Origin: a virus | Lineage: Duplodnaviria > Caudoviricetes | Length of the DNA stretch: 64,000 nucleotides | Virus record (IMG/VR): IMGVR_UViG_3300037067_004891 | Coordinates: 160,001-224,000 of that record | Reading direction: 5' to 3' (one strand) | Shown here: one piece after another, positions 2,350-58,949 of the stretch | Position numbering within the stretch: position 1 is the stretch's first letter | Layout of the letters: each line of letters begins with the position of its first letter | Notes under the pieces: model-generated | Database searches by the model: none | What the model saw: only the letters and a program-made list of their open reading frames with translations | Told to the model about the DNA's origin: nothing | Made by a program: the position numbers and the translations under genes

Positions 2350-2626
2350 CTTTCAAAGCCCTTGATGCTTTACTATAATAAAGACTTTGGAAACTGTAAA
2401 TATAACCAGCATCACAACAAGCCACATATCTATTAGCTTCTTCTTCAGAAATATCGGATACTTTACACATTTGGATTAGGTTCATTGGTTTCTCATATTT
2501 ACACAACCAACTATCAGCATAATCCAACGTATTAAATCCTTTTATTTTATATGGTCTATTAAAAAAAACCTTTTCTTCAATATGAAGAAACCTACAAACT
2601 ATTCTATTAATAACTCTACGTATCAT
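2312..2626 (-). CDS. hypothetical protein
   Basis: ORF track; its ATG falls within the decayed terminal repeat of array 1. Confidence 0.55.
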   Translation of the reverse strand: MIRRVINRIVCRFLHIEEKVFFNRPYKIKGFNTLDYADSWLCKYEKPMNLIQMCKVSDISEEEANRYVACCDAGYIYSFQSLYYSKASRALKDAIRKKYCVVYI

Positions 2627-2845
2627 ATTTTGTTATATTCACCTCACCGATCTTATTGAATTTATCTTCCTATATACAGTTGTGTCAACCCTCATTTTTG
2701 TGTGTTCACTCACTCAATTGTTAATGCCCCACCACTTGCAGCATGTTGTGTCAACCCTCATTTTTGTGTGTTCACTCACCTATTTACAACTCTTAAATCA
2801 TATTTTTCTGTTGTGTCAACCCTCATTTTTGTGTGTTCACTCACC
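2623..2845 (-). CRISPR. CRISPR-like array 1 (repeat A): 3 full repeats plus 1 decayed
   Basis: Repeat GGTGAGTGAACACACAAAAATGAGGGTTGACACAAC (minus strand) at 2810-2845, 2745-2780, 2679-2714 (1 mismatch); decayed copy ~2623-2648; spacers 29, 30, 30 nt. Confidence 0.85.
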
Positions 2846-3111
2846 ATACCCTTAATTAATTCATTAATAGTTAGATCATTAAGATGATATTTCGTTTCTA
2901 AAACTTGATAAATTTTATAATAATTATAAAATAAAACATATGTTTTCTTATCGTAACTAAAATAAACAACGTCATTTTTCTTTCCAACTAAAATATCAGA
3001 ATTATACTTAGAAGCAAACCACTCAGTATCTTTAATTATTTGCCATAAAAAATACTTAGGACTTCTCGCTTCTTGTATCTTTCGAATTACATCTAATATA
3101 TCTTCTTCCAT
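2776..3111 (-). CDS. array-fused cassette protein, copy 1
   Basis: MEEDILDVIRKIQEARSPKYFLWQ...GMVSEHTKMRVDTT+spacer; start set at 3111 by comparison with paralogs. Confidence 0.8.
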   Translation of the reverse strand: MEEDILDVIRKIQEARSPKYFLWQIIKDTEWFASKYNSDILVGKKNDVVYFSYDKKTYVLFYNYYKIYQVLETKYHLNDLTINELIKGMVSEHTKMRVDTTEKYDLRVVNR

Positions 3112-20020: not shown

Positions 20021-20596
20021 ATGAAACCACTCGATTACATTAAAAAATATAACCTTGATAAAGGTGTAAACTTCAGTCATAATGAATTCATTTCAGACTT
20101 GACAATGGATTTTATTACACTTTTAGAAGTGGGTAATGCACGAGGTAATATTAAAGGTTATAATAACGCTGTCAATGCTATTCGAATGAAATGGGATGGC
20201 ATAGATAAAAAAACGGCTGGTCAATTACCTGAAAAACTCTGGAAATATTTTTTCGCTTCTGTGATAGCTAAATTGCGTGAAGAATTATTTCCAGAAGAAA
20301 TGAAAAGGCAACGACAAGAAAAAGAGGATTGGAAAAGAAGAAAAGAAGAATGGGAGCGCATGGAAAGAGAACACGATTCTTGGATATTTGGTTTCTTTTT
20401 ACATTCTTTATTTTCTAAACAAAAACCAGTTTCCAGTTTCCAAGTCCTCGGACTAACATCTGACGCAACGCTGGAAGACGTGAAAACAGAATATCGTAAA
20501 TTATCAATGATTCACCATCCTGACAAAGGTGGTAACAGAGATAAATTCATTGAGCTAACTGAGGCTAAAAACAAATGTTTGGCATTTTTATCATAA
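20021..20596 (+). CDS. protein with C-terminal DnaJ (J) domain
   Basis: VLGL...VKTEYRKLSMIHHPDKGG. Confidence 0.85.
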   Translation: MKPLDYIKKYNLDKGVNFSHNEFISDLTMDFITLLEVGNARGNIKGYNNAVNAIRMKWDGIDKKTAGQLPEKLWKYFFASVIAKLREELFPEEMKRQRQEKEDWKRRKEEWERMEREHDSWIFGFFLHSLFSKQKPVSSFQVLGLTSDATLEDVKTEYRKLSMIHHPDKGGNRDKFIELTEAKNKCLAFLS

Positions 20597-20597
20597 A

Positions 20598-20984
20598 ATG
20601 GAAGAAGACATATTAGATATAATAAAAAAGATACAAGAAGCTCGTAATCCCAAATATTTTTTATGGCAAATAATTAAAGATACTGAGTGGTTTACTGCTA
20701 AGTATAATTCTAATATTTTAGTTGGAAAGAAAAATGATGTTGTTTATTTTAATTACGATAAGAAAAATCACACTTTATATTATGATTACAACAAAATATA
20801 CACAGTTTTAGAAACGAAATATCATCTTAACAGATTGAATGCTAATGAAATAATTGGTGGTATGGTGAGTGAACACACAAAAATGAGGGTTGACACAACC
20901 AAGGTGCAGGAGTACAGATATATAAGAATGGTGAGTGAACACACAAAAATGAGGGTTGACACAACTCATTTATATCAATTTTAA
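20598..20984 (+). CDS. array-fused cassette protein, copy 2
   Basis: Paralog of 2776-3111 and 48102-48443; reads through two repeats (VSEHTKMRVDTT twice). Confidence 0.8.
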   Translation: MEEDILDIIKKIQEARNPKYFLWQIIKDTEWFTAKYNSNILVGKKNDVVYFNYDKKNHTLYYDYNKIYTVLETKYHLNRLNANEIIGGMVSEHTKMRVDTTKVQEYRYIRMVSEHTKMRVDTTHLYQF

Positions 20985-21351
20985 TATCTTCCTTAGGTGA
21001 GTGAACACACAAAAATGAGGGTTGACACAACTATTCGCATTGCAATCGCCTTCTTCATGTTCGGTGAGTGAACACACAAAAATGAGGGTTGACACAACCA
21101 AGTATAAACCCGTTGTGCTTCATCATTAGGTGAGTGAACACACAAAAATGAGGGTTGACACAACTGGTGTATTGCGTTTCTCTATTATGTGGGCAGGTGA
21201 GTGAATATACAAAAATGAGGGTTGACACAACATTAGAGAGTTTATAAATGCGAAAAAAGGGGGTGAGTGAATATACAAAAATGAGGGTTGACACAACTGT
21301 TCTATGGTGGTTCAACAGACAACACATTGGTGAGTGAACACACAAAATGAG
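20864..21351 (+). CRISPR. CRISPR-like array 2 (repeat A): 7 full repeats plus 1 truncated
   Basis: Repeats start at 20864, 20930, 20996, 21063, 21129, 21196, 21262 (last two with GAATATAC variant); truncated copy at 21329; spacers 30,30,31,30,31,30,31 nt, all unique. Confidence 0.9.
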
Positions 21352-22804: not shown

Positions 22805-23368
22805 TCAATGATGTCTTCTTGAACTATTTTCACTAACAGATATCCATCTACAATTTTCAGGTGTATAATTTCCATCGGAATTAATTCTATCTATTGATAA
22901 TTTATCTTTAAATGGTGTGTTTTTTGGCTGTTTAAAATAACCATTACTAATTGACCAATCCCTAAATTTTGTGAAATCGTTTAACTATTCATTACAAACT
23001 ATAATACCTTTACCACCATAATTATGATATTTGAGTGATTTTGGATTATAACATCTTTGTTTAATAGTATTCCAAACAAAAAATAAAGATTTATATTCAT
23101 TATATCCATTGGGTGTATTACCATGTGTTTTTGAATTTTCACCAATTCTTTCACCATTCACCTCTTTCATATAACAACCACAAGACACACTTCTATTATT
23201 CCTTAATGAATATAATAATACATTTGAGATATTACCACATTCACATATACATATGAATACTCTACAAAGTTTTCCACAAGGTTGTCTATGAGATGGTGCT
23301 TCTTTTAATATAGACCATCTTCCAAATTTTTGACCTGAAATTATCAAGATTGGTTTAGCCATTACCAA
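22805..23368 (-). pseudogene. HNH-type homing endonuclease with internal TAG
   Basis: Frame continues after TAG at 22985-22987: LNDFTKFRDWS...SIDRINSDGNYTPENCRW to TGA at 22805. Confidence 0.75.
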
Positions 23369-25520
23369 ATTTAACTTTTATTGTTCGTTTAAATGAACCA
23401 GAAAGTTTTAAAATTACACACTCAGAAACAGTAGCATTAAATCCAACACCTGATAATTGTTTTTCAGTAGGTTCAATCATGGTAGTGTTACCTAATACTT
23501 CAAGAACCTTACGATGTTTAGCCAGTTCAGGTATCAAGTTTTCATTATGAAAACTACGAATATTCACAGGGCATTTACAACCGTCAAGCATGATCAAATA
23601 ATGTTTATTACCTACATTATTATCACCCCAATGATTAGGACTTAGACACACCAAATTAACTTTATGAAATTCATTTGTTTGTAAACCATAAAGTTCTTTA
23701 GATGATGCAATTTCAGGTAGTAAATGCATAATGCTAAATTCCCCATTATTCAAAGTAACTTCAGCTACTTGTACATTGCCTGATACGGGTTTATTATATT
23801 CATAAGAATAATTTTCGCCCCCGAATTCAATTTCAGCTTTGAATCCTTTAGAACCCCTGCTGGCATATTGGTTAATCCACAATTTGTAAACACCATCTTT
23901 CATTCTTTTGATATCAGTCCAAGCGATATTCTCAACAATATTTTTATTACTAAAATTATTAGGTTGAGTTATATCAATATCCAACTGTCCAGACATAGAA
24001 GTTCTATGATTTCCTCTGTCTTTTCTGTAATCAGACGAATAATAAATATGAGTACCATTTGGTTCTTGTGCATGAGCATCTAAATCGGAATTATCTGTTG
24101 GGTCATTTTCTGCCCACATAATAGAGAAACGCAATACACCATCAACCTTACCACCTTTAGCTTCAACAGCATCTTTAATCATCGATTTACCAGCCAAGTT
24201 ACCATTGAATGTCCAACTGTAATTGTTATTCCATTTGAATATAGGTTTGCTTTCTTTATTGTTAGCTGTTGTTAAAGAAACAAGATTACCTTCATATTTG
24301 TTAGACAAATACGCTTCAACTGAAGTACACGAAGGAAGAACATCCGACATAAACTTTTCAATAGTTACTTCTTCCACATTATCAAATTCACTTCCTTTGT
24401 GACGAGTAGAAGTCGATTTAACATTGTCGAATATAGAAACAGTTTTTAATTTACCGTCTCCAACATTGATGTGTTTAATTTCCGAAACTTTAATATCATC
24501 AATTGTGGCAAATCTTCTATTAAAAGATTCTTCATAACCATTTTCTTCAACGAATTTTTTAGCTTCTTCAATTTGTTTCTTGGTAATCGGAGCAACAGTT
24601 TTCATATAATTAACTGGGTCAACTCTTTTATTCCAAGACTGACATGCTTTGTTTAAATCTTCCCCCTCTGCCAATTCGGTGCATAAAGTACCAATTAATT
24701 CATTTTTGAACTTAGCAAATGGAAGTTTATAACTGTTAACCCAACACCAATTATCCCTTTTATCCTCGGATAATTTATCATATTGTTCCTTTAATGGTAT
24801 GATTTGATGTAATTTATACAAATGAGTTTGTCCATCCAGCAGTGAACCTTGGTTAATAAGGTCTTTCACCAGATTGAGTGTATCAAGCGGTATCACTTGC
24901 ATAGCCTTTTGAAAAACATTTTTGGCATCTCGATAATTAGCCATTATTTTTTCAACTGAATCATCACCCATATCTACAAATACCCTTGGTAGATTAAGAT
25001 GTAAATGATTAAATGTTCTAATTTCTTCAGGTTTAACTATGAAAGAATCATCTGAATTTTTATACAATTCAGCTTCATCTTTTGTGTATTGCTTTACGTT
25101 TTTGTCAATACCCAATCTGAAAATTTCATTTGTTTTAGAACATTTCTCATAAGGTAAAGAATTTAGCTCGCTGAAAGTTTCAAAGAAAACACCCGAAACC
25201 GTAGCCGATTTTAGTTTAGAATCTACCACTTTAGCTACTGCACTGTATTCTTCATTTGCATCAACATCAAACATCGTAACAACATTGAGATTTTCATCAA
25301 TGGCAACGATATTACCATATCTACGAATAAAGTTATTACAGTGATTACAGTTATGTGAAGAACTGTCTGGACTTCTGAATATGGGATTGTGTTCTTTTGG
25401 AAAACTTTTAATATACAAATCCCACACTTCTTGACCAGTCAACGAACTACGAAATAACTTACCCGTTTCACACATCTTGTTGAATTGGGCTTGAATTAGT
25501 TTGTTAAACTCAATCATCAC
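23355..25520 (-). CDS. large phage protein (721 aa) of unknown function
   Basis: HNCNHC motif; C-terminal DLDAH / LDIDI region resembling YfaP/DUF2135-type domains. Confidence 0.6.
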   Translation of the reverse strand: MMIEFNKLIQAQFNKMCETGKLFRSSLTGQEVWDLYIKSFPKEHNPIFRSPDSSSHNCNHCNNFIRRYGNIVAIDENLNVVTMFDVDANEEYSAVAKVVDSKLKSATVSGVFFETFSELNSLPYEKCSKTNEIFRLGIDKNVKQYTKDEAELYKNSDDSFIVKPEEIRTFNHLHLNLPRVFVDMGDDSVEKIMANYRDAKNVFQKAMQVIPLDTLNLVKDLINQGSLLDGQTHLYKLHQIIPLKEQYDKLSEDKRDNWCWVNSYKLPFAKFKNELIGTLCTELAEGEDLNKACQSWNKRVDPVNYMKTVAPITKKQIEEAKKFVEENGYEESFNRRFATIDDIKVSEIKHINVGDGKLKTVSIFDNVKSTSTRHKGSEFDNVEEVTIEKFMSDVLPSCTSVEAYLSNKYEGNLVSLTTANNKESKPIFKWNNNYSWTFNGNLAGKSMIKDAVEAKGGKVDGVLRFSIMWAENDPTDNSDLDAHAQEPNGTHIYYSSDYRKDRGNHRTSMSGQLDIDITQPNNFSNKNIVENIAWTDIKRMKDGVYKLWINQYASRGSKGFKAEIEFGGENYSYEYNKPVSGNVQVAEVTLNNGEFSIMHLLPEIASSKELYGLQTNEFHKVNLVCLSPNHWGDNNVGNKHYLIMLDGCKCPVNIRSFHNENLIPELAKHRKVLEVLGNTTMIEPTEKQLSGVGFNATVSECVILKLSGSFKRTIKVKFGNG

Positions 25521-28591: not shown

Positions 28592-30000
28592 GGTTAACCA
28601 ACTGCTAACAAAAATATAATAAAATCTACAAATATTTAATAAAATTAAAACAAAACGTTTTAATTTTAATATAAATTTAATGTTAAAAGCGATAAAAATA
28701 AGGTTGTACCCTAATAAAAATCAAGAAGTTTATATTAATAAACTTCTTGGTTGTTACCGCTTTATGTATAATAAATGCTTAGAGTTAAAGAAAAATAAAT
28801 ATACTGAAGAAAATATTTCTTTAGGTTTAAAAGATTTAGGAAAACATTTTCATCAAAATTTAACTAAAAATAATGATTATATTTTTCTTAAAGAACACAA
28901 TACCAAGGTTTTAAAACAAGCAATTATTAATCTTTTAGATTCTTACAAAAACTTTTTCATAAATGGAACTGGTTTTCCTAAATTTAAATCAAAGAAAGAC
29001 AACAAACATTCTTGTAGGTTTCCAGCAGAAAGTGTAAGTAAAAAGAATAATTATTTATCTGGGAAATTAACTTTAACCAGTCAAATTAAAGATATAAAAT
29101 TCAAATGTTCAGATAATTATAAAAATTATTTAGATAAATATAAAAATAATATTCGGTCAGCTACTCTTACTAAAACTGCTTCTGGAAATTATTTTTTAAG
29201 CGTTTTAGTTGATGGAAATATTGAAAAACAACTACCCAAACCTATAAATGAAATTGTTGGGATAGATTTGGGAATAAAGGACTTCGTGATTAGCTCCGAA
29301 GGAGCTGTTTACGAAAACCTTAAAACCCAAAGAGCCAACGAGAAGCAGCTCATTAAATTGCAAAAACAACTGTCTAAAAAAGTTATAGGAAGTAGAAACA
29401 GAAACAAAGCAAGAAAAAAATTAGCTAAAAAATATGATAAAATAAATAACAAGAAAGAAAAATATTTACATTTTGTTGCAAACCAATTACTTAATGATAA
29501 TCAAATTATAGTGTTGGAAGATTTAAATGTAAAAGGTATGTTGAAAAATCACTGTCTATCAAAATCAATACAAGAACTGTCACTAAACAGGTTTAAAAAT
29601 ATTTTAAGTTATAAATCTGCCTGGTATGATAGAAATTTAATTGAAGTTGATCGGTGGTTTCCTTCATCAAAGCTCTGTAACTGTTGTGGTTATAAAAAGA
29701 AAGACTTGAAATTAAATGATAGAGTGTGGGTCTGTCCCAACTGTGGGGTCGTTCACGACCGTGATTTTAACGCTGCTATAAATATAAGAGAAGAAGGGAA
29801 AAGAATTTTTAACAGTAAAATAACTGACTTTCAATCAAAAAAAGATTTTCAAGTAGGCAACCGTTTTGCCGAATTTACGCTTGTGGACTCCCCAACTATG
29901 GATGACCCAATCAGAAATGGTTTGCTAAAAAGTAGTGAGAGTGTGAAACAAGAAGAAATATTTTTAACAAATTTGTAATTTTTGTTAGATTTTTTTGAAC
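28592..30000 (+). mobile_element. tnpB-only insertion element, IS607-like ends
   Basis: GGTTAA at both junctions; subterminal inverted repeat CTAACAAAAAT (28605-28615) / ATTTTTGTTAG (29978-29988); no tnpA. Confidence 0.8.
28680..29978 (+). CDS. tnpB: TnpB RNA-guided nuclease
   Basis: KIRLYPN HTH, GIDLG, LEDL, CNCC/CPNC zinc finger, HDRDFNAAINI. Confidence 0.95.
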   Translation: MLKAIKIRLYPNKNQEVYINKLLGCYRFMYNKCLELKKNKYTEENISLGLKDLGKHFHQNLTKNNDYIFLKEHNTKVLKQAIINLLDSYKNFFINGTGFPKFKSKKDNKHSCRFPAESVSKKNNYLSGKLTLTSQIKDIKFKCSDNYKNYLDKYKNNIRSATLTKTASGNYFLSVLVDGNIEKQLPKPINEIVGIDLGIKDFVISSEGAVYENLKTQRANEKQLIKLQKQLSKKVIGSRNRNKARKKLAKKYDKINNKKEKYLHFVANQLLNDNQIIVLEDLNVKGMLKNHCLSKSIQELSLNRFKNILSYKSAWYDRNLIEVDRWFPSSKLCNCCGYKKKDLKLNDRVWVCPNCGVVHDRDFNAAINIREEGKRIFNSKITDFQSKKDFQVGNRFAEFTLVDSPTMDDPIRNGLLKSSESVKQEEIFLTNL

Positions 30001-30599: not shown

Positions 30600-30744
30600 A
30601 TGGATGATACTTTTGATATAATAAAAAAGATACAGGAAGCCAGAAGCCCGAAATATTTTTTATGGCAAATAATTAAAGATATTGAGTGGGTTGATTCTAA
30701 GTATATTTCTAAATATTTATACAAAAAATGAGGGTTGACACAAC
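30600..30744 (+). pseudogene. internally deleted 4th copy of array-fused cassette
   Basis: MDDTFDIIKKIQEARSPKYFLWQIIKDIEW (43 aa, stop 30729-30731) joined to the 3' part of repeat A (30721-30744). Confidence 0.8.
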
Positions 30745-31009: not shown

Positions 31010-32281
31010 ATGATAGTAACATCATCAATGAAAATAAAAATAATACCAGTGGATGTAATATCCAAAAAGTGGATATTTGATATTTTTAATGTATCTTATA
31101 AGATTCAGAATCGGGCTTATGATATATCACGGATGTTACATCAATATCCAGTAATAATGTTACCTGTTACACCACCCAAATCACAAGTATATAATTTAAC
31201 TACTCAGGAATTTCCTAAAGTTATTACTACTTATCTGAGAGATTGGGTATATCAAGCAGAAAACAATTATAAAAGTGATGTTAAAGCTGGTTTATTATCA
31301 GGTAAAAGAAGTCCAAGACTGTATAAGAAATATGGTGCTACACGTTTTCAATTTTTGAAAAAATCTAATCCAAAATTAATAAAAGAAAATGGTGATTTTT
31401 TTATTCTTATTAACAGTAGAACAAATATCAAATTTAAAATACTATTCGACAAAAAAACAGGACATCTTAAAACTATGTTAAATAGATTTTTGGATTTAGA
31501 AAATAAAAAATACAATCTTAACTCAACTTTTTATATTAAAAAAACCAATAGAAACGAACTGATGTTAATCATATCCTATGAACAAGACATCCAAGGTTAT
31601 GTTGGCATAAATAATAGAGTGATGGGTATTGATATGGGTGTGAGAAGATTTATTTCTTTAAGAATAAATGACATACCAAGATATCAGAAGTCTATTCATA
31701 GTGAGAAATTAGTTCAACAGAAGTATGGTATTGCTATGAAAAATAAAAGGGTACAGGAATCTTCTGTATTAGCTAAATCAGGTCATGGTAGAACAAGAAA
31801 AATGCAGGTTTATAATAAAGTAAAAGATTCTGAAACATCATTTACTAATAATGTACTGGATAAATTATCAAAAGAAGTAATTGAATCTGCTGCAAAACGA
31901 AAAGTTCAACAGATAAACATGGAACGTCTTGATAAGAATTCTATGAAAGAACAAAATTCTTATCTTGGAAGATATTGGAGTGTTATGACTTTGATGAATC
32001 TAATTGAACAAAAAGCAACTAAACGTGGTATCATTGTTAAATATGTCGACCCTTATCATACAAGTCAGACTTGTTCATGCTGTGGTATGATTGGTGAAAG
32101 AAATGGTGCTGATTTTAAATGTATTAATGCTAAATGTGAAGAATTTAATAAAGATAAAGTAATTGATAGCGATTATAATGCTGCAATGAATATAGCTACA
32201 TCTGTTGATTATTTAGATGATGCAAGCAAAGGAAAATATTACTTAAATAAAACCAAAAAGGTTTTAGAAGAAGTTCTTTGA
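31010..32281 (+). CDS. cas12f: compact type V CRISPR effector, Cas12f-like (423 aa)
   Basis: RuvC motifs GIDMG, MERL, DSDYNAAMNIA; GHGR motif; TSQTCSCCG zinc finger; adjacent array. Confidence 0.8.
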   Translation: MIVTSSMKIKIIPVDVISKKWIFDIFNVSYKIQNRAYDISRMLHQYPVIMLPVTPPKSQVYNLTTQEFPKVITTYLRDWVYQAENNYKSDVKAGLLSGKRSPRLYKKYGATRFQFLKKSNPKLIKENGDFFILINSRTNIKFKILFDKKTGHLKTMLNRFLDLENKKYNLNSTFYIKKTNRNELMLIISYEQDIQGYVGINNRVMGIDMGVRRFISLRINDIPRYQKSIHSEKLVQQKYGIAMKNKRVQESSVLAKSGHGRTRKMQVYNKVKDSETSFTNNVLDKLSKEVIESAAKRKVQQINMERLDKNSMKEQNSYLGRYWSVMTLMNLIEQKATKRGIIVKYVDPYHTSQTCSCCGMIGERNGADFKCINAKCEEFNKDKVIDSDYNAAMNIATSVDYLDDASKGKYYLNKTKKVLEEVL

Positions 32282-32498
32282 AATAATATTGAGGTTTATT
32301 GGGTTGGACGTAAGTCCAGTAAATGAACTGCTATATACACTCACTAAAATGTATGGTGAGCGCAGGGATTAAAACCAGATAGTGAGGTCAGGAAATCAAA
32401 AATTGGATTTTTTAGAGTTAAATTTAAAAGATTACATATTTTTTTTCCACTAATACACTCACTAAATACCTTTATTTCAGTGGTTTAAAATGGGATAA
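32282..32498 (+). ncRNA. putative tracrRNA/scaffold RNA
   Basis: TTGGAC-GTAA-GTCCAG GNRA hairpin (32304-32319), CTCACT/GGTGAG stem, partial anti-repeat at 32466-32488. Confidence 0.55.
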
Positions 32499-32864
32499 GA
32501 TGGGTTAAACCACAAATTGAGAGGTATGCCCAGCTATACATCGCTTAACTTGGTAGTAAGAGCAAGATGGGTTAAACCACAAATTGAGAGGTATGCCCAG
32601 CTAAGGGACGAATACGATAAATCCACCTGTGATGGGTTAAACCACAAATTGAGAGGTATGCCCAGCTACCTTTTTTACATGCGTCAATTAAAGAAAGATG
32701 GGTTAAACCACAAATTGAGAGGTATGCCCAGCTTATAATTCATCATCATCATTTTTTAATTAGATGGGTTAAACCACAAATTGAGAGGTATGCCCAGCAG
32801 CCACAGTGAGGAATTTGTTTTTAACTATGATGGGTTAAACCACAAATTGAGAGGTATGCCCAGC
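32499..32864 (+). CRISPR. CRISPR array (repeat B): 6 repeats, 5 spacers
   Basis: GATGGGTTAAACCACAAATTGAGAGGTATGCCCAGC at 32499, 32566, 32631, 32697, 32763, 32829; spacers 31,29,30,30,30 nt; orientation inferred from the cas gene. Confidence 0.95.
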
Positions 32865-42969: not shown

Positions 42970-43758
42970 TTAAACGAAATTTATATTATCCAAATTTTTC
43001 AAATACCCCTTGGATTTGAGTTCTCTGATTACAATGGTAGCATATTTTTTATCTAAAAGTTTGAAAATATTAAATATGTTATCGGAAAAATAATAAGCCA
43101 GTTCAACAAATATTTCCGAATGTGTATATTTTATACTCAAATGATTCAACAATAGCCTATAATAATCATTAAATGATTGTTTGTTTGGTTTTCTTCGATT
43201 ATTTTTAAATTCTAAATCAGTATGTTTTTCTAAGATTTCAAAAACATCATTTGAAAGATTTTTTTGATTAACATATTCTTCATTGTTTCGAGATTCTTGT
43301 TCAAATAAACTACCAGAATCAATCTTATAATTTTTATTAATAGGATGATCAGATGTATCGTCATCTGCTGTTTCTATTTTATTTTCTTTGCCTTTAAATA
43401 TTGTATCTCTCTTTAAAGAATGTCTACCTTCTCTTTTATGTTTATTGTTATTAAAACGATAAAGAGCATTTAAATCGGAATGTTTATTAGTAGAAACGCT
43501 TTGATTTTCATTTTCTTTCACATTCTTATCACCATCATCATCTTCATCATCTTCGATTTCTTCTATATAAGATAAATCTTCTACATTTTCTTCAACATCA
43601 CTTATATCTTCAAATTGGTTATTACCGAGTGTAATTTCATTATACTCATCAGAATCTTCATTATCAATTTCTAAAAAATCTGGGGTTTCATAATCATCTT
43701 CTAATTTTAAATTTTTATTTTTATCGTTCATAAAATTAAATTTGTTTTTAAACAACAA
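42970..43758 (-). CDS. hypothetical protein with acidic N-terminus
   Basis: ORF track. Confidence 0.65.
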   Translation of the reverse strand: MLFKNKFNFMNDKNKNLKLEDDYETPDFLEIDNEDSDEYNEITLGNNQFEDISDVEENVEDLSYIEEIEDDEDDDGDKNVKENENQSVSTNKHSDLNALYRFNNNKHKREGRHSLKRDTIFKGKENKIETADDDTSDHPINKNYKIDSGSLFEQESRNNEEYVNQKNLSNDVFEILEKHTDLEFKNNRRKPNKQSFNDYYRLLLNHLSIKYTHSEIFVELAYYFSDNIFNIFKLLDKKYATIVIRELKSKGYLKNLDNINFV

Positions 43759-47741: not shown

Positions 47742-48177
47742 ATTGTGTCAACCCTCATTTTTGTGTGTTCACTCACCAAAGAATATATTGGTGAAAAAAT
47801 GATTTGTGGTTGTGTCAACCCTCATTTTTGTGTGTTCACTCACCTATCGAATATTTCAACCACATCGGTTACATAAGTTGTGTCAACCCTCATTTTTGTG
47901 TGTTCACTCACCTTTTCCTCGCCATAAGGAAAGCAGATAATTAGTTGTGTCAACCCTCATTTTTGTGTGTTCACTCACCCAAAAATAAAAAAGATAGTAA
48001 AGTGGCTGGGTTGTGTCAACCCTCATTTTTGTGTGTTCACTCACCGTACAAAGTATGCAAAACCGCCCCATCCTGTTGTGTCAACCCTCATTTTTGTGTG
48101 TTCACTCACCTGAGTTGGGTGTAGTATATATAGTCGGGTCAGTTGTGTCAACCCTCATTTTTGTGTGTTCACTCACC
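47742..48177 (-). CRISPR. CRISPR-like array 3 (repeat A): 7 repeats, 6 spacers
   Basis: Repeats start at 47742 (1 mismatch), 47809, 47877, 47944, 48010, 48075, 48142; spacers 31,32,31,30,29,31 nt. Confidence 0.9.
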
Positions 48178-48443
48178 ATACCACCAATTATTTCATTAGC
48201 ATTCAATATGTTAAGGTGATATTTCGTTTCTAAAACTTGATATATTTTGTTGAAGTTATAATATAAAACATATTTTTTCTTATCGTAATTAAAATAAACA
48301 ACATCATTTTTCTTTCCAACTAAAATATTAGAATTATACTTAGCAGTAACCCACTCAGTATCTTTAATTATTTGCCATAAAAAATACTTAGGACTTCTCG
48401 CTTCTTGTATCTTTCGAATTATATCTGATATATCTTCTTCCAT
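48102..48443 (-). CDS. array-fused cassette protein, copy 3
   Basis: Paralog ending GMVSEHTKMRVDTT+spacer; TATATTTG promoter-like element at 48463-48470. Confidence 0.8.
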   Translation of the reverse strand: MEEDISDIIRKIQEARSPKYFLWQIIKDTEWVTAKYNSNILVGKKNDVVYFNYDKKKYVLYYNFNKIYQVLETKYHLNILNANEIIGGMVSEHTKMRVDTTDPTIYTTPNSGE

Positions 48444-57248: not shown

Positions 57249-58949
57249 TTAATCACCAACTTTACCATTTTTTAATTGTATCTTTTTAATTATACCATTA
57301 TGAATTTCGCCATTATTAAAAACACCATCTTGCCAGAAACCATTAACAAACGAACCATTATTCCAAATAGGTGTTGAAGACTCTGTTCCAAAATATCCAT
57401 TAAGAAATTCGCCATTATTAAATGTACCATCTTTAAGCCAACCACCATACCATTTACCGTTATTAAAATTACCATCATTCCAAATAGATATCTTGTGATT
57501 GCCTGATTCTTGAATATTTTCATTAGAGTCTTTGATCACACCAGAATGAAACTCGCCATTATTAAACTCGCCATTATTCCAAATACATCGTTCATAATTA
57601 TAAGTCGAATTATCTGTTGTATAATAAACATTAACCACTAATCCTGCAAAACGTATAAATGCATTTGTAACATAAATACCACTTTTATATAATTTGAAAT
57701 TTACCGAAAAGCTGTCACTATTTATATCCTTAGCAGATAAATTTGTTCCCCAAGTATTAGTTGGACTTCCAAAAATAAAATTATAAACAGGATTATATGG
57801 ACTTAATGGAAAAACTGGTATAACTTCGAAATCAGCCAAATTATTCGATTGATTAATAGGATCATTTGTCGGAAAAGGCGATATTGTAACATTTGTTATA
57901 TTATATCGCTTTTCAAATTCTGCTGTGACACTATAAAGTGCCAATTTAACTTCAATACCATTTATAACAGAATTGTTTGGTATGTTTAAATTAAATCCAT
58001 ATATGGAAATTGTTTTTACGTAATCTCTTCCACTTTTAGTTTCCGATTCAGCATATGTAGTTCTGTTTTCATGTATTTGTCCATTAACTACTTGATACAT
58101 ACCAGGTAATTTCCAAGCTATATAACCATCATTAAATTGATGAAATAATAAAGGTTTTATAAATGAAGTTGTTCCTGTATTTATTAAATATTCGATAAGT
58201 GGTTCAATATTTTCTGTTACGCCAAATCTCGATTTTATATTTTCATCAAAAGTAGTAAACACACCATCCATCCATTGACCATTTATAAAATCTCCACCTA
58301 AAAACGTACCATTATACCACACAAATCCATTAAATTGTCCATTATAAAATTTACCATTTATCCACTGTATATTTTCCATGTAACCATTATACCAGTTACC
58401 ATTATACCATATAGCATGATAAATTATACCATCATAAAAATTTCCATTTTTCCACACACAAGTTTGCGCACTATTAGAGTTAATATCATTATCTCCAAGT
58501 GAGTTATTAGGATCATATTGAGTATATTTTGACCAATCTACAATTTTTGTACCAAATGTACCACCATGAAAATCACCAGATTCCCATACCACAAACCCAT
58601 CACCAACACCCATAACAGAATATTGATTTCCTTTGTCTATTATATTGAAATTTCCATTTAAAATATCAAAATTATTAAGTTTATAACTATAAAATTTTCC
58701 ATCTTTCCACGTTCCGTTTTCAAAATTACCAGAATACCATGTACCATTATACCAATCTCCACAAATCCAATTACCAGAATACCAAACCAAACCATATGTA
58801 TCTTCACCTATTATAGCATCTTCAATAGAAGCATTGAAAATCCAATTATATCTAATTTTCAATTTGTCAATAGACATACCATCAACAAATGTTATATTCA
58901 TTTTATTAAAATCTACATTTTGTAAAGCTAATGCTATATTTACGGCCAT
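57249..58949 (-). CDS. (W/F)xxGx pentapeptide-repeat virion protein
   Basis: Many WYNG/FNNG 5-residue repeats flanking a globular insert. Confidence 0.65.
   Translation of the reverse strand: MAVNIALALQNVDFNKMNITFVDGMSIDKLKIRYNWIFNASIEDAIIGEDTYGLVWYSGNWICGDWYNGTWYSGNFENGTWKDGKFYSYKLNNFDILNGNFNIIDKGNQYSVMGVGDGFVVWESGDFHGGTFGTKIVDWSKYTQYDPNNSLGDNDINSNSAQTCVWKNGNFYDGIIYHAIWYNGNWYNGYMENIQWINGKFYNGQFNGFVWYNGTFLGGDFINGQWMDGVFTTFDENIKSRFGVTENIEPLIEYLINTGTTSFIKPLLFHQFNDGYIAWKLPGMYQVVNGQIHENRTTYAESETKSGRDYVKTISIYGFNLNIPNNSVINGIEVKLALYSVTAEFEKRYNITNVTISPFPTNDPINQSNNLADFEVIPVFPLSPYNPVYNFIFGSPTNTWGTNLSAKDINSDSFSVNFKLYKSGIYVTNAFIRFAGLVVNVYYTTDNSTYNYERCIWNNGEFNNGEFHSGVIKDSNENIQESGNHKISIWNDGNFNNGKWYGGWLKDGTFNNGEFLNGYFGTESSTPIWNNGSFVNGFWQDGVFNNGEIHNGIIKKIQLKNGKVGD

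Follow-up and report, generated by a model that had tools for sequence, protein, structure and literature searches.

Gene-array cassettes in a megaphage lineage: a conserved small-protein gene that ends in the first repeat of a CRISPR-like array

What is a gene doing where a CRISPR array should have its leader? [quoted passage not shown] In the 64,000 nucleotides (nt) of phage DNA analysed here, hereafter the window (bases 160001-224000 of an IMG/VR virus record that is 421,673 bp long and has a guanine-plus-cytosine (GC) content of 25.7%), three arrays are each headed by a gene for a protein of about 100 amino acids (aa), and the end of that gene is the first repeat. We call the gene and its array together a cassette: the two share 36 nt, and the end of the gene is the growing end of the array. 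We consider, with a probability of about one half, that the cassette is a genuine, actively renewed CRISPR array with a small protein gene in place of the non-coding leader and with its integrase and effector supplied in trans. Parts of a published annotation describe the genome as that of a landfill jumbo phage with 'six CRISPR arrays', two of them orphan, and place phages of this kind in the Mahaphage group, with Bacteroidota as predicted hosts (George et al. 2025, PMC12607003).

All three open reading frames (ORFs) read ...G-M-VSEHTKMRVDTT, a peptide encoded by the first copy of a 36-nt repeat that starts GGTGAGTGAAC, ends GACACAAC and recurs at a spacing of 65-68 nt. The preliminary description of the window had reported three paralogues with this ending, 17 full repeats, 16 different spacers of 29-32 nt, and decayed or variant repeats at the gene-distal ends. 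The coordinates of the ORFs and repeats confirm the paralogues, and our recount agrees with the numbers: there are 3 + 7 + 7 full repeats, two of them with 2 mismatches, and 14 spacers between full repeats plus two ahead of decayed terminal repeats, all different. The distal repeats do vary, those at 21196 and 21262 being an older variant, that at 21329-21351 truncated and that at 47742-47777 changed in its final base, so that it ends in T. Seventeen near-identical 36-mers at this spacing cannot have arisen by chance. To these we add a fourth, truncated cassette and spacers that match the phage's own genome perfectly, neither of which had been described. The features are as follows.

2620-2845, minus strand: cassette 1 array; repeats at 2810-2845 (within the gene), 2745-2780 and 2679-2714, and a decayed fourth at about 2620-2648
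2776-3111, minus strand: cassette 1 gene, 111 aa from the ATG at 3111
2781-2809, minus strand: cassette 1 spacer 1, which matches the phage's own glycosyltransferase gene (genome 256664-256692)
20598-20984, plus strand: cassette 2 gene, 128 aa as read, with codons 1-89 as its unique part
20864-21351, plus strand: cassette 2 array, seven 36-nt repeats with spacers of 30-31 nt
20864, 20930, 20996, 21063, 21129, 21196 and 21262, plus strand: starts of the cassette 2 repeats, followed by the truncated eighth at 21329-21351
21165-21195, plus strand: cassette 2 spacer 5, a perfect match to the phage's own 721-aa gene
30603-30744, plus strand: truncated cassette, some 40 codons from the N-terminal end joined to the final ~22 nt of the repeat
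47742-48177, minus strand: cassette 3 array, seven repeats with spacers of 29-32 nt, the first repeat (48142-48177) lying within the gene
48102-48443, minus strand: cassette 3 gene, 113 aa, with a promoter-like motif, TATATTTG, about 22 nt upstream

In cassette 2, codons 90-101 (VSEHTKMRVDTT) are the first repeat, and spacer 1, repeat 2 and spacer 2 encode the tail of the protein. The gene begins 1 nt past the stop codon of a DnaJ-domain gene (20021-20596) and belongs to a string of genes on the same strand. At the far end of the array the ATG of the next gene (21347; in cassette 1, 2626) lies inside the decayed terminal repeat (21329-21351; 2620-2648), at the repeat's internal ATG. The truncated repeat at 21329 reads ...EHTK-stop, with an ATGA overlap of stop and start, and could be a relic of the 3' end that the gene had before it acquired an array. 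Genome-wide there are seven full gene copies of ~100 aa each and one truncated copy; three of the full cassettes and the truncated one are in the window and four further full cassettes lie elsewhere. An array follows every full copy save the one at genome 23267, where only a vestige is present. The truncated cassette, which was also found in two other metagenomes (joint 20713>21011), is probably a decayed copy.

The reading that the sequence ahead of each array is only a leader, and not a gene, was ruled out. The ORF is truly coding and is under purifying selection, because the pairwise ratio of non-synonymous to synonymous divergence (dN/dS) over seven copies is 0.16-0.41 in the 92 codons ahead of the repeat, where synonymous divergence reaches about 1, and because the differences among the seven copies fall at codon positions 1, 2 and 3 as 411/247/523. 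The cassettes resemble other CRISPR arrays in their direct repeats, in protospacers that come from mobile-element DNA and in the degeneracy of the gene-distal repeats, but where an A+T-rich non-coding leader would be expected the upstream sequence, first repeat included, is a gene under purifying selection. An AlphaFold2 model built from a 43-sequence family alignment (predicted local distance difference test score 94.5, predicted template-modelling score 0.80) has two helices, a four-stranded sheet and two further helices in that order, and the repeat-encoded residues 89-101 complete helix 4, so that they are integral to the predicted fold. The C-terminal motif, of the form LIKGMVxEHLKLxVxT, is conserved in the family. 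That the protein resembles no Cas family had been a matter of recognition in the preliminary description; profile and structure checks now agree with it, with zero matches in Pfam, PADLOC, PHROGs, NCBIfam or the PDB sequences and no known fold matched in fold searches (best Foldseek E-value 0.37, best VIA-align Z 4.2). The ESM Atlas returned only unnamed viral clusters at a template-modelling (TM) score of ~0.74. The protein has an isoelectric point (pI) of 7.9 and is not markedly basic.

How far does the layout extend beyond this genome? Five phage records were compared: the genome of the window, a complete phage of 639,979 bp (G001, the 640-kb relative), one of 675,678 bp (G002, the 676-kb relative), a 98-kb phage fragment (G003) and a 19.6-kb fragment (G004). 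Cassettes occur in this genome, in G001 and in the three other records, and together amount to 23 cassette-type arrays or single gene-embedded repeats, with 76 repeats of 36 nt and 53 internal spacers of 28-32 nt (mode 30). Within each of the 23 units the repeats are those of the 3' end of that unit's own gene. G001 has ~12 gene copies, nine with arrays of 2-5 repeats, two with the gene-embedded repeat only and one with neither. A profile search of 1.84 billion representatives yielded 105 family members, typically of 100-150 aa, and all four of the distant homologues with readable DNA (25-35% identity) have arrays of 36 + 30 nt, their repeats being built from their own, quite different, 3' ends. 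The earlier proposal that homologues in other phages would be followed by arrays equal to their own 3' ends therefore holds as a rule. A few family members have no array; one is P0033, a homologue on a related phage contig at a locus syntenic to cassette 3, where 4 nt separate the gene from its neighbour. The other extreme is a 760-aa ORF on a 148-kb phage contig (L133:6001-8283), which consists of five tandem cassettes at spacings of 288, 66 or 60 nt; because the unit lengths are all multiples of three, in frame, and the spacers are free of stop codons, the repeat-spacer units of that phage may be translated as linkers. A metagenome scan for additional cassette loci found three, and the Logan contigs of four DNA runs that contain the locus break at the repeats.

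Array-bearing members are found in both major clades of the family tree and most array-less members are nested among them on long branches. This placement suggests that the link between gene and array is ancient, with sporadic losses, and the long branches of the array-less members make it probable that the protein is functionally tied to its own array. A small array-less group may be basal (both of its scored members lack arrays), the root being uncertain and support modest. Since the association spans the family down to 25-35% identity, a recent accidental capture of coding sequence, one of the readings offered at the outset, appears unlikely.

Array renewal can be read from the repeats themselves. 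In each array with repeat variation, the farther a repeat lies from the gene, the more mismatches it has to the gene-embedded copy (for example 0,0,4,5 and 0,1,2,4), and in the array at genome 410310 the distal repeats carry a variant that is still used by another cassette. The cassette at 20598 is syntenic in G001 and G002, with flanks that are 77-81% identical, and yet the repeat variant of the array differs among the three phages, agreeing in each with the adjoining gene, and no two of the arrays have a spacer in common; the arrays have therefore been renewed completely since these phages diverged. This pattern of drift and turnover is the expected product of repeated duplication of the first repeat during spacer insertion. 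The termini of the repeat are conserved even at synonymous and fourfold-degenerate sites (the ACA codon in 17/17), while the middle varies freely.

The spacers identify the source of the inserted DNA. Eleven cassette spacers match this genome or related megaphage genomes at 27/30 or better, several at 100%, so that the protospacers sought in the preliminary description do exist; most cassette spacers have no match in the available sequences. Three spacers in this genome match it perfectly at targets elsewhere in the genome, two in G001 match G001 (one perfectly and one with a single mismatch), and one in the 98-kb fragment matches that fragment perfectly. The targets are core genes, for a helicase, topoisomerase II, head maturation protease, glycosyltransferase and epimerase, together with conserved genes of unknown function. 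With two weaker matches included, nine protospacers lie on the sense strand and four on the antisense strand, a bias that is not significant and was rejected as a sign of RNA targeting; both strands are matched, and the spacer source is therefore DNA, with no indication that RNA is targeted. The spacers thus derive from both strands of core genes of this megaphage lineage, self included. Two protospacers lie in the window.

24111-24141, minus strand: protospacer of cassette 2 spacer 5, in gene 23355-25520 (phrog_1735), sense strand, 3' flank GAAAAT
43609-43639, minus strand: protospacer inside gene 42970-43758, matched 31/31 by spacer 4 of a cassette array in the 98-kb fragment

The first of these is also present at 100% in G002. 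The 721-aa gene that contains it (genome 183355-185523) is 96.7% identical in DNA to its G002 counterpart while its flanks are ~80% identical, which suggests a recent exchange of this gene between the lineages. Next to the protospacers, the 3' flank reads NAAAA in 4/11 cases against a background of 0.027 (uncorrected p = 1.4e-4, or ~0.006 allowing for ~40 motifs), and of the five self-matches counted, four of them perfect and one with a single mismatch, four retain the motif. The 5' flanks of the 11 protospacers, a small sample, have no motif, and so there is no T-rich 5' motif of the type V kind. Four GC-rich spacers scanned against IMG/VR had no exact match and two arrays searched against GenBank phages by blastn had no match. 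According to George et al. 2025 (PMC12607003), the megaphage arrays matched no virus in the data of that study, a point on which the cassettes differ.

On the reading that we favour, new spacers would be inserted between the unique part of the gene and its terminal 36 nt by a Cas1-Cas2-type integrase acting in trans. Its most likely supplier would be the Bacteroidota host, because the phages encode no Cas1 or Cas2: neither was detected in any of the five records, while control genomes responded to the same search. Each insertion would copy the 36 nt, so the protein would keep its folded C-terminal helix and only a tail of ~3-12 residues would change, the tail being longer where an in-frame spacer lets reading pass into the next repeat; after out-of-frame spacers, TGA codons in the other two frames of the repeat start would end translation. 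The transcript of the gene itself would run on through the array and serve as the precursor of CRISPR RNA (pre-crRNA), which we infer from the 1 nt between cassette 2 and the upstream gene on the same strand and from the position of the next ATG inside the decayed last repeat. The guides would then be used by a class 2 effector in trans, probably one that depends on a trans-activating CRISPR RNA (tracrRNA), in conflicts among co-infecting megaphages. Dependence on tracrRNA, rather than self-processing, is suggested by the lack of a stable fold in the cassette repeat, which folds no better than shuffled sequences. The candidate effectors are an enzyme of the host or the Cas12f/TnpB-like proteins of the phage, next to which the arrays with the closest repeats are found.

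No cas gene adjoins the cassettes of the window, as had been stated at the outset; the nearest are a TnpB gene (28680-29978) and a Cas12f-like gene with a different array of its own. Comparison of coordinates gave no link between the cassettes and the positions of TnpB genes.

31010-32281, plus strand: Cas12f-like or TnpB-family protein of 423 aa, a candidate trans effector
32464-32864, plus strand: imperfect tracrRNA-like anti-repeat (32464-32498) and Cas12f-linked array (six 36-nt repeats at 32499-32864)

The repeat of this Cas12f array is different from the cassette repeat yet related to it, being identical at 24-26/36 positions, and the repeat closest to the cassette repeat is that beside a Cas12f-like gene of G001 (28/36, against 24 at the 99th percentile of shuffled sequences). 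Cas12f-like genes are present in every genome that bears cassettes; this genome and G001 have 8-9 genes each of the TnpB/Cas12f-like kind and G002 has two. The Cas12f, Cas9 and IscB arrays of these phages have a common 36/30 format, NNTG...CAAC repeat ends and the same orientation behind a leader. These comparisons give modest support to Cas12f as the effector of the cassettes. The three functions first put forward for the cassette (a small crRNA-binding or processing protein with its own guide array, a guide cassette that serves Cas12f or a host effector, and coding sequence captured by host Cas1-Cas2) are not separated by these data: recent capture is unlikely, and for the link to Cas12f the likeness of the repeats (24-28/36 positions) is set against the absence of the orthologue from G001. 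As side observations, a related phage fragment is matched at 27/30 by one spacer of the window's Cas12f array, the flank on the 5' side being ATTA, and in G001 the most distal spacer of an array (184951-185305) behind a 475-aa Cas12f-like gene perfectly matches that same gene (186092-186121).

Several findings weigh against the reading that we favour. The window Cas12f protein and its counterpart in G002 are 93-94% identical, and the arrays that they adjoin have repeats only 23/36 alike; the window gene also lacks an orthologue in the complete G001, which has ~10 cassette arrays. Searches for an anti-repeat to the cassette repeat gave none that was convincing by BLAST, nor by RNAduplex at the Cas12f locus, at the IscB locus and within the ORF body, and an ungapped genome scan that allowed Watson-Crick and G-U pairs found none but failed on its positive controls too; the power of these scans is low. 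The flank motif sits on the 3', leader-distal side of the protospacer, which fits neither the 5' protospacer-adjacent motif (PAM) of type V nor the II-C and VI-B systems of Flavobacterium. The missing orthologue, the 23/36 repeats, the wrong-side motif and the failure to find an anti-repeat all stand in the way of an assignment to Cas12f, and our comparisons reached no assignment of an effector for the cassette arrays. No RNA sequencing run is listed as containing cassette sequence, and when 185,579 species-representative bacterial genomes were scanned for the 20 nt at the 3' end of the repeat, four single chance matches came up and no array. The arrays of one genome have up to eight repeat variants, and the proportion of synonymous differences (pS) is similar in the repeat (0.43) and in the body of the gene (0.475), which argues against a single strict RNA or protein partner. 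Finally, an active DNA nuclease should not tolerate self-matching spacers whose targets retain the flank motif.

What chiefly lacks an explanation is that perfect self-matches are tolerated, and this keeps alive a reading that we regard as unlikely, in which the cassette is an integration decoy or repeat sponge. The 3' end of the gene would mimic the leader-repeat junction of the host, soak up prespacers and divert the host Cas1-Cas2; in a variant, the transcripts would tie up a host effector in the manner of RNA anti-CRISPRs and the arrays would be inherited by-products rather than guides. A decoy would account for the use of the carrier genome as a spacer source with the flank motif kept, and there is no sign of selection against self-matching spacers, but only ~10-15% of spacers match the carrier, even in the complete G001. 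Many host-derived spacers would fit the mean spacer GC of 34%, against 26% for the phage, yet no host array with this repeat was found among the species representatives. The lack of adaptation genes and of an assignable effector, the many dispersed copies per genome (7-12), multiplied by replication, and the tolerance of repeat variants within a genome all suit a decoy; it has no need, however, of a conserved, well-folded protein, and purifying selection acts on the N-terminal part of the gene. The association has also lasted through very deep divergence while the repeats themselves changed.

A second alternative gives the protein itself the leading part, and we think it doubtful to the same degree. 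It would be a new CRISPR-associated factor that acts on the repeat of its own gene, either as an adaptor that recruits the integrase or as a factor that binds, processes or loads pre-crRNA; the gene and array would be a portable, self-templating guide cassette through which guide libraries are renewed without a cas operon, and dual coding would lock protein and repeat into co-evolution. Gene and array stay linked all through the family, which comprises over 100 clusters at 50% identity, although this could be purely a matter of cis arrangement in which the gene is promoter and repeat template only. The repeat-encoded peptide is an integral and conserved part of the predicted fold, but that fold is not similar to any nucleic-acid-binding or Cas fold (the best Z being the 4.2 given above) and the pI is not that of a markedly basic protein. 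Most array-less members are long-branched, as if constraint relaxes once the array is lost, whereas some array-less copies look intact, such as that at 275106-275408 in G001, which is on a short branch. Among those examined, family members were found on viral contigs only.

It is improbable that the arrays are a neutral accident, functionless scars at a repeat-like gene 3' end that became an off-target integration site and was copied with gene duplications: E. coli is known to integrate off target where a site imitates the leader-repeat junction, the arrays are short (2-8 repeats) and no effector or tracrRNA was found, but the layout is kept at 25-35% identity with diverged repeats, the arrays are fully renewed and not decaying, the termini of the repeat are conserved at fourfold-degenerate sites, and copy number reaches ~12 per genome.

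Is the cassette, as a gene-array module, already known? The scaffold of the TnpB omega RNA (reRNA) overlaps the 3' end of tnpB, with the variable guide directly after it. There, as putatively in the cassette, a coding 3' end doubles as the constant part of a guide RNA, but TnpB has one fixed guide, set by the position of the transposon, and is itself the effector, whereas in the cassette a growing multi-spacer array follows the gene for a protein of 100 aa that has no features of a nuclease. Camara-Wilpert and colleagues are said to have described, in 2023, solitary repeat units or RNA anti-CRISPRs of phages, which are lone repeats or very small arrays and imitate a known repeat of the host. 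These are alike in being cas-less phage repeats beside small genes of unknown function; the cassettes differ in that their spacers turn over and no matching host repeat was found, and likeness to a solitary repeat is limited to the truncated unit at 30603-30744. Rfam returned no CRISPR direct-repeat (CRISPR-DR) or other family, at the gathering threshold or at E <= 10. The weakly structured 36-nt repeat and ~30-nt spacers would fit type II, for which the NAAAA 3' flank, at only 4/11, is no more than suggestive. Repeat length and the CAAC end would fit type VI-B; the 5' end is GGTG, the fold is no better than that of shuffled sequences and both strands are matched. Type V-F arrays of the Cas12f/TnpB family in the same phages have the 36/30 architecture, the same orientation and repeats alike at 24-28/36, whereas the cassettes are not adjacent to Cas12f-like genes and have neither a 5' T-rich motif nor a matching anti-repeat that we could find.

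A precedent for adaptation in trans comes from Flavobacterium columnare, in which a type VI-B array that lacks cas1 and cas2 is filled by a type II-C module, and the II-C and VI-B arrays of Bacteroidota have 36-bp repeats with a common leader-distal GTTGT end (Hoikkala et al. 2021, PMC8092290). With these arrays the cassette repeat shares the GTTGT end and the polarity with respect to the leader, and its protospacers have an A-rich flank motif; in F. columnare, however, the leader is non-coding and A+T-rich, with the spacer's PAM end turned towards it, whereas the cassette leader is a gene and the motif is leader-distal (PMC8092290). The cassette arrays are, in addition, phage-borne and their repeats have no stable fold. 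The arrays of huge phages are compact (a median of about six repeats), lack Cas1, Cas2 and Cas4 and often an adjacent effector, and have spacers aimed at the core genes of other phages, for which the use of effectors in trans was suggested, as described in parts of two reports (Al-Shayeb et al. 2020, PMC7162821; George et al. 2025, PMC12607003). The cassettes are like these orphan or 'mini' arrays in compactness, phage location, missing Cas1 and Cas2 and core-gene targets; the sections of those reports that deal with the arrays make no mention of a coding leader, a first repeat that encodes a C-terminus, a gene family or self-matching spacers (PMC7162821, PMC12607003). What is already known is thus that phages carry compact, cas-less arrays that target phages, and these very arrays have been reported as orphan. 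What seems undescribed, no description having been found in the open literature, is that the leader is coding and the first repeat dual-coded, that a protein family is deeply linked to arrays, that cassettes occur in multiple copies and in tandem, and that spacers match self; the earlier designation of a candidate undescribed gene-array module stands.

The significance of a family of phage cassettes in which a conserved protein gene replaces the leader, its C-terminus being the first repeat, is that every spacer gained rewrites the tail of the protein and every change in the repeat is a change in the protein. If the arrays are used, these viruses run guide libraries with all of the enzymes in trans, and this points to an unassigned effector able to tolerate guides that match self; as decoys, they would represent a new anti-adaptation strategy. 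Either way the cassettes offer a compact natural substrate for the study of leader recognition by integrases and a marker for arrays that standard pipelines call 'orphan'. They may also be a snapshot of the birth of a CRISPR array from coding DNA at the 3' end of a gene.

Some further observations concern other candidate effectors and the remainder of the window. The only perfect anti-repeat is the antisense strand of the truncated cassette; that unit is missing beside the 93-94% identical Cas12f-like gene of G002, and its candidacy as a tracrRNA gene for Cas12f was rejected for this reason. G001 encodes a 1138-aa Cas9 with RuvC and HNH domains (284683-288099; L069:4683-8099) and an 11-repeat array (288242-288937) without cas1 or cas2; the repeat of this array agrees with the cassette repeat at 20/36, and no Cas9 was found in this genome by tblastn. 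A protein of 1024-1031 aa (genome 316482-319577, L134:12482-15577; G001 178018-181092) is ~80% conserved in the three big phages and has no family match. Its G001 copy adjoins a 4-repeat array with a repeat ending ...TCCTACTATTGTAGGT, which looks Cas12a-like, and the protein is possibly an unrecognised type V effector. In G002 a 529-aa IscB-type protein (RRXRR + HNH; 128709-130298, L099:8709-10298) lies beside an 8-repeat array (130402-130873) and is thus a CRISPR-associated IscB of a megaphage, and G001 has a 104-aa remnant of this G002-type IscB beside a 2-repeat array (395616-396029). The 461-aa IscB of this genome (309307-310794; L134:5307-6794) has a HEARO/omega RNA (RF02033, 103 bits) at its 5' end and, having its own guide RNA, was rejected as the cassette effector. 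It may be the protein that the annotation published for this phage (George et al. 2025, PMC12607003) lists as 'Cas9 not proximal to any array'. Elsewhere in the window, many degenerate direct repeats of ~30-60 nt (families D5, D8-D10) lie inside a 566-aa minus-strand ORF (57249-58949), which is probably a repeat-rich structural protein.

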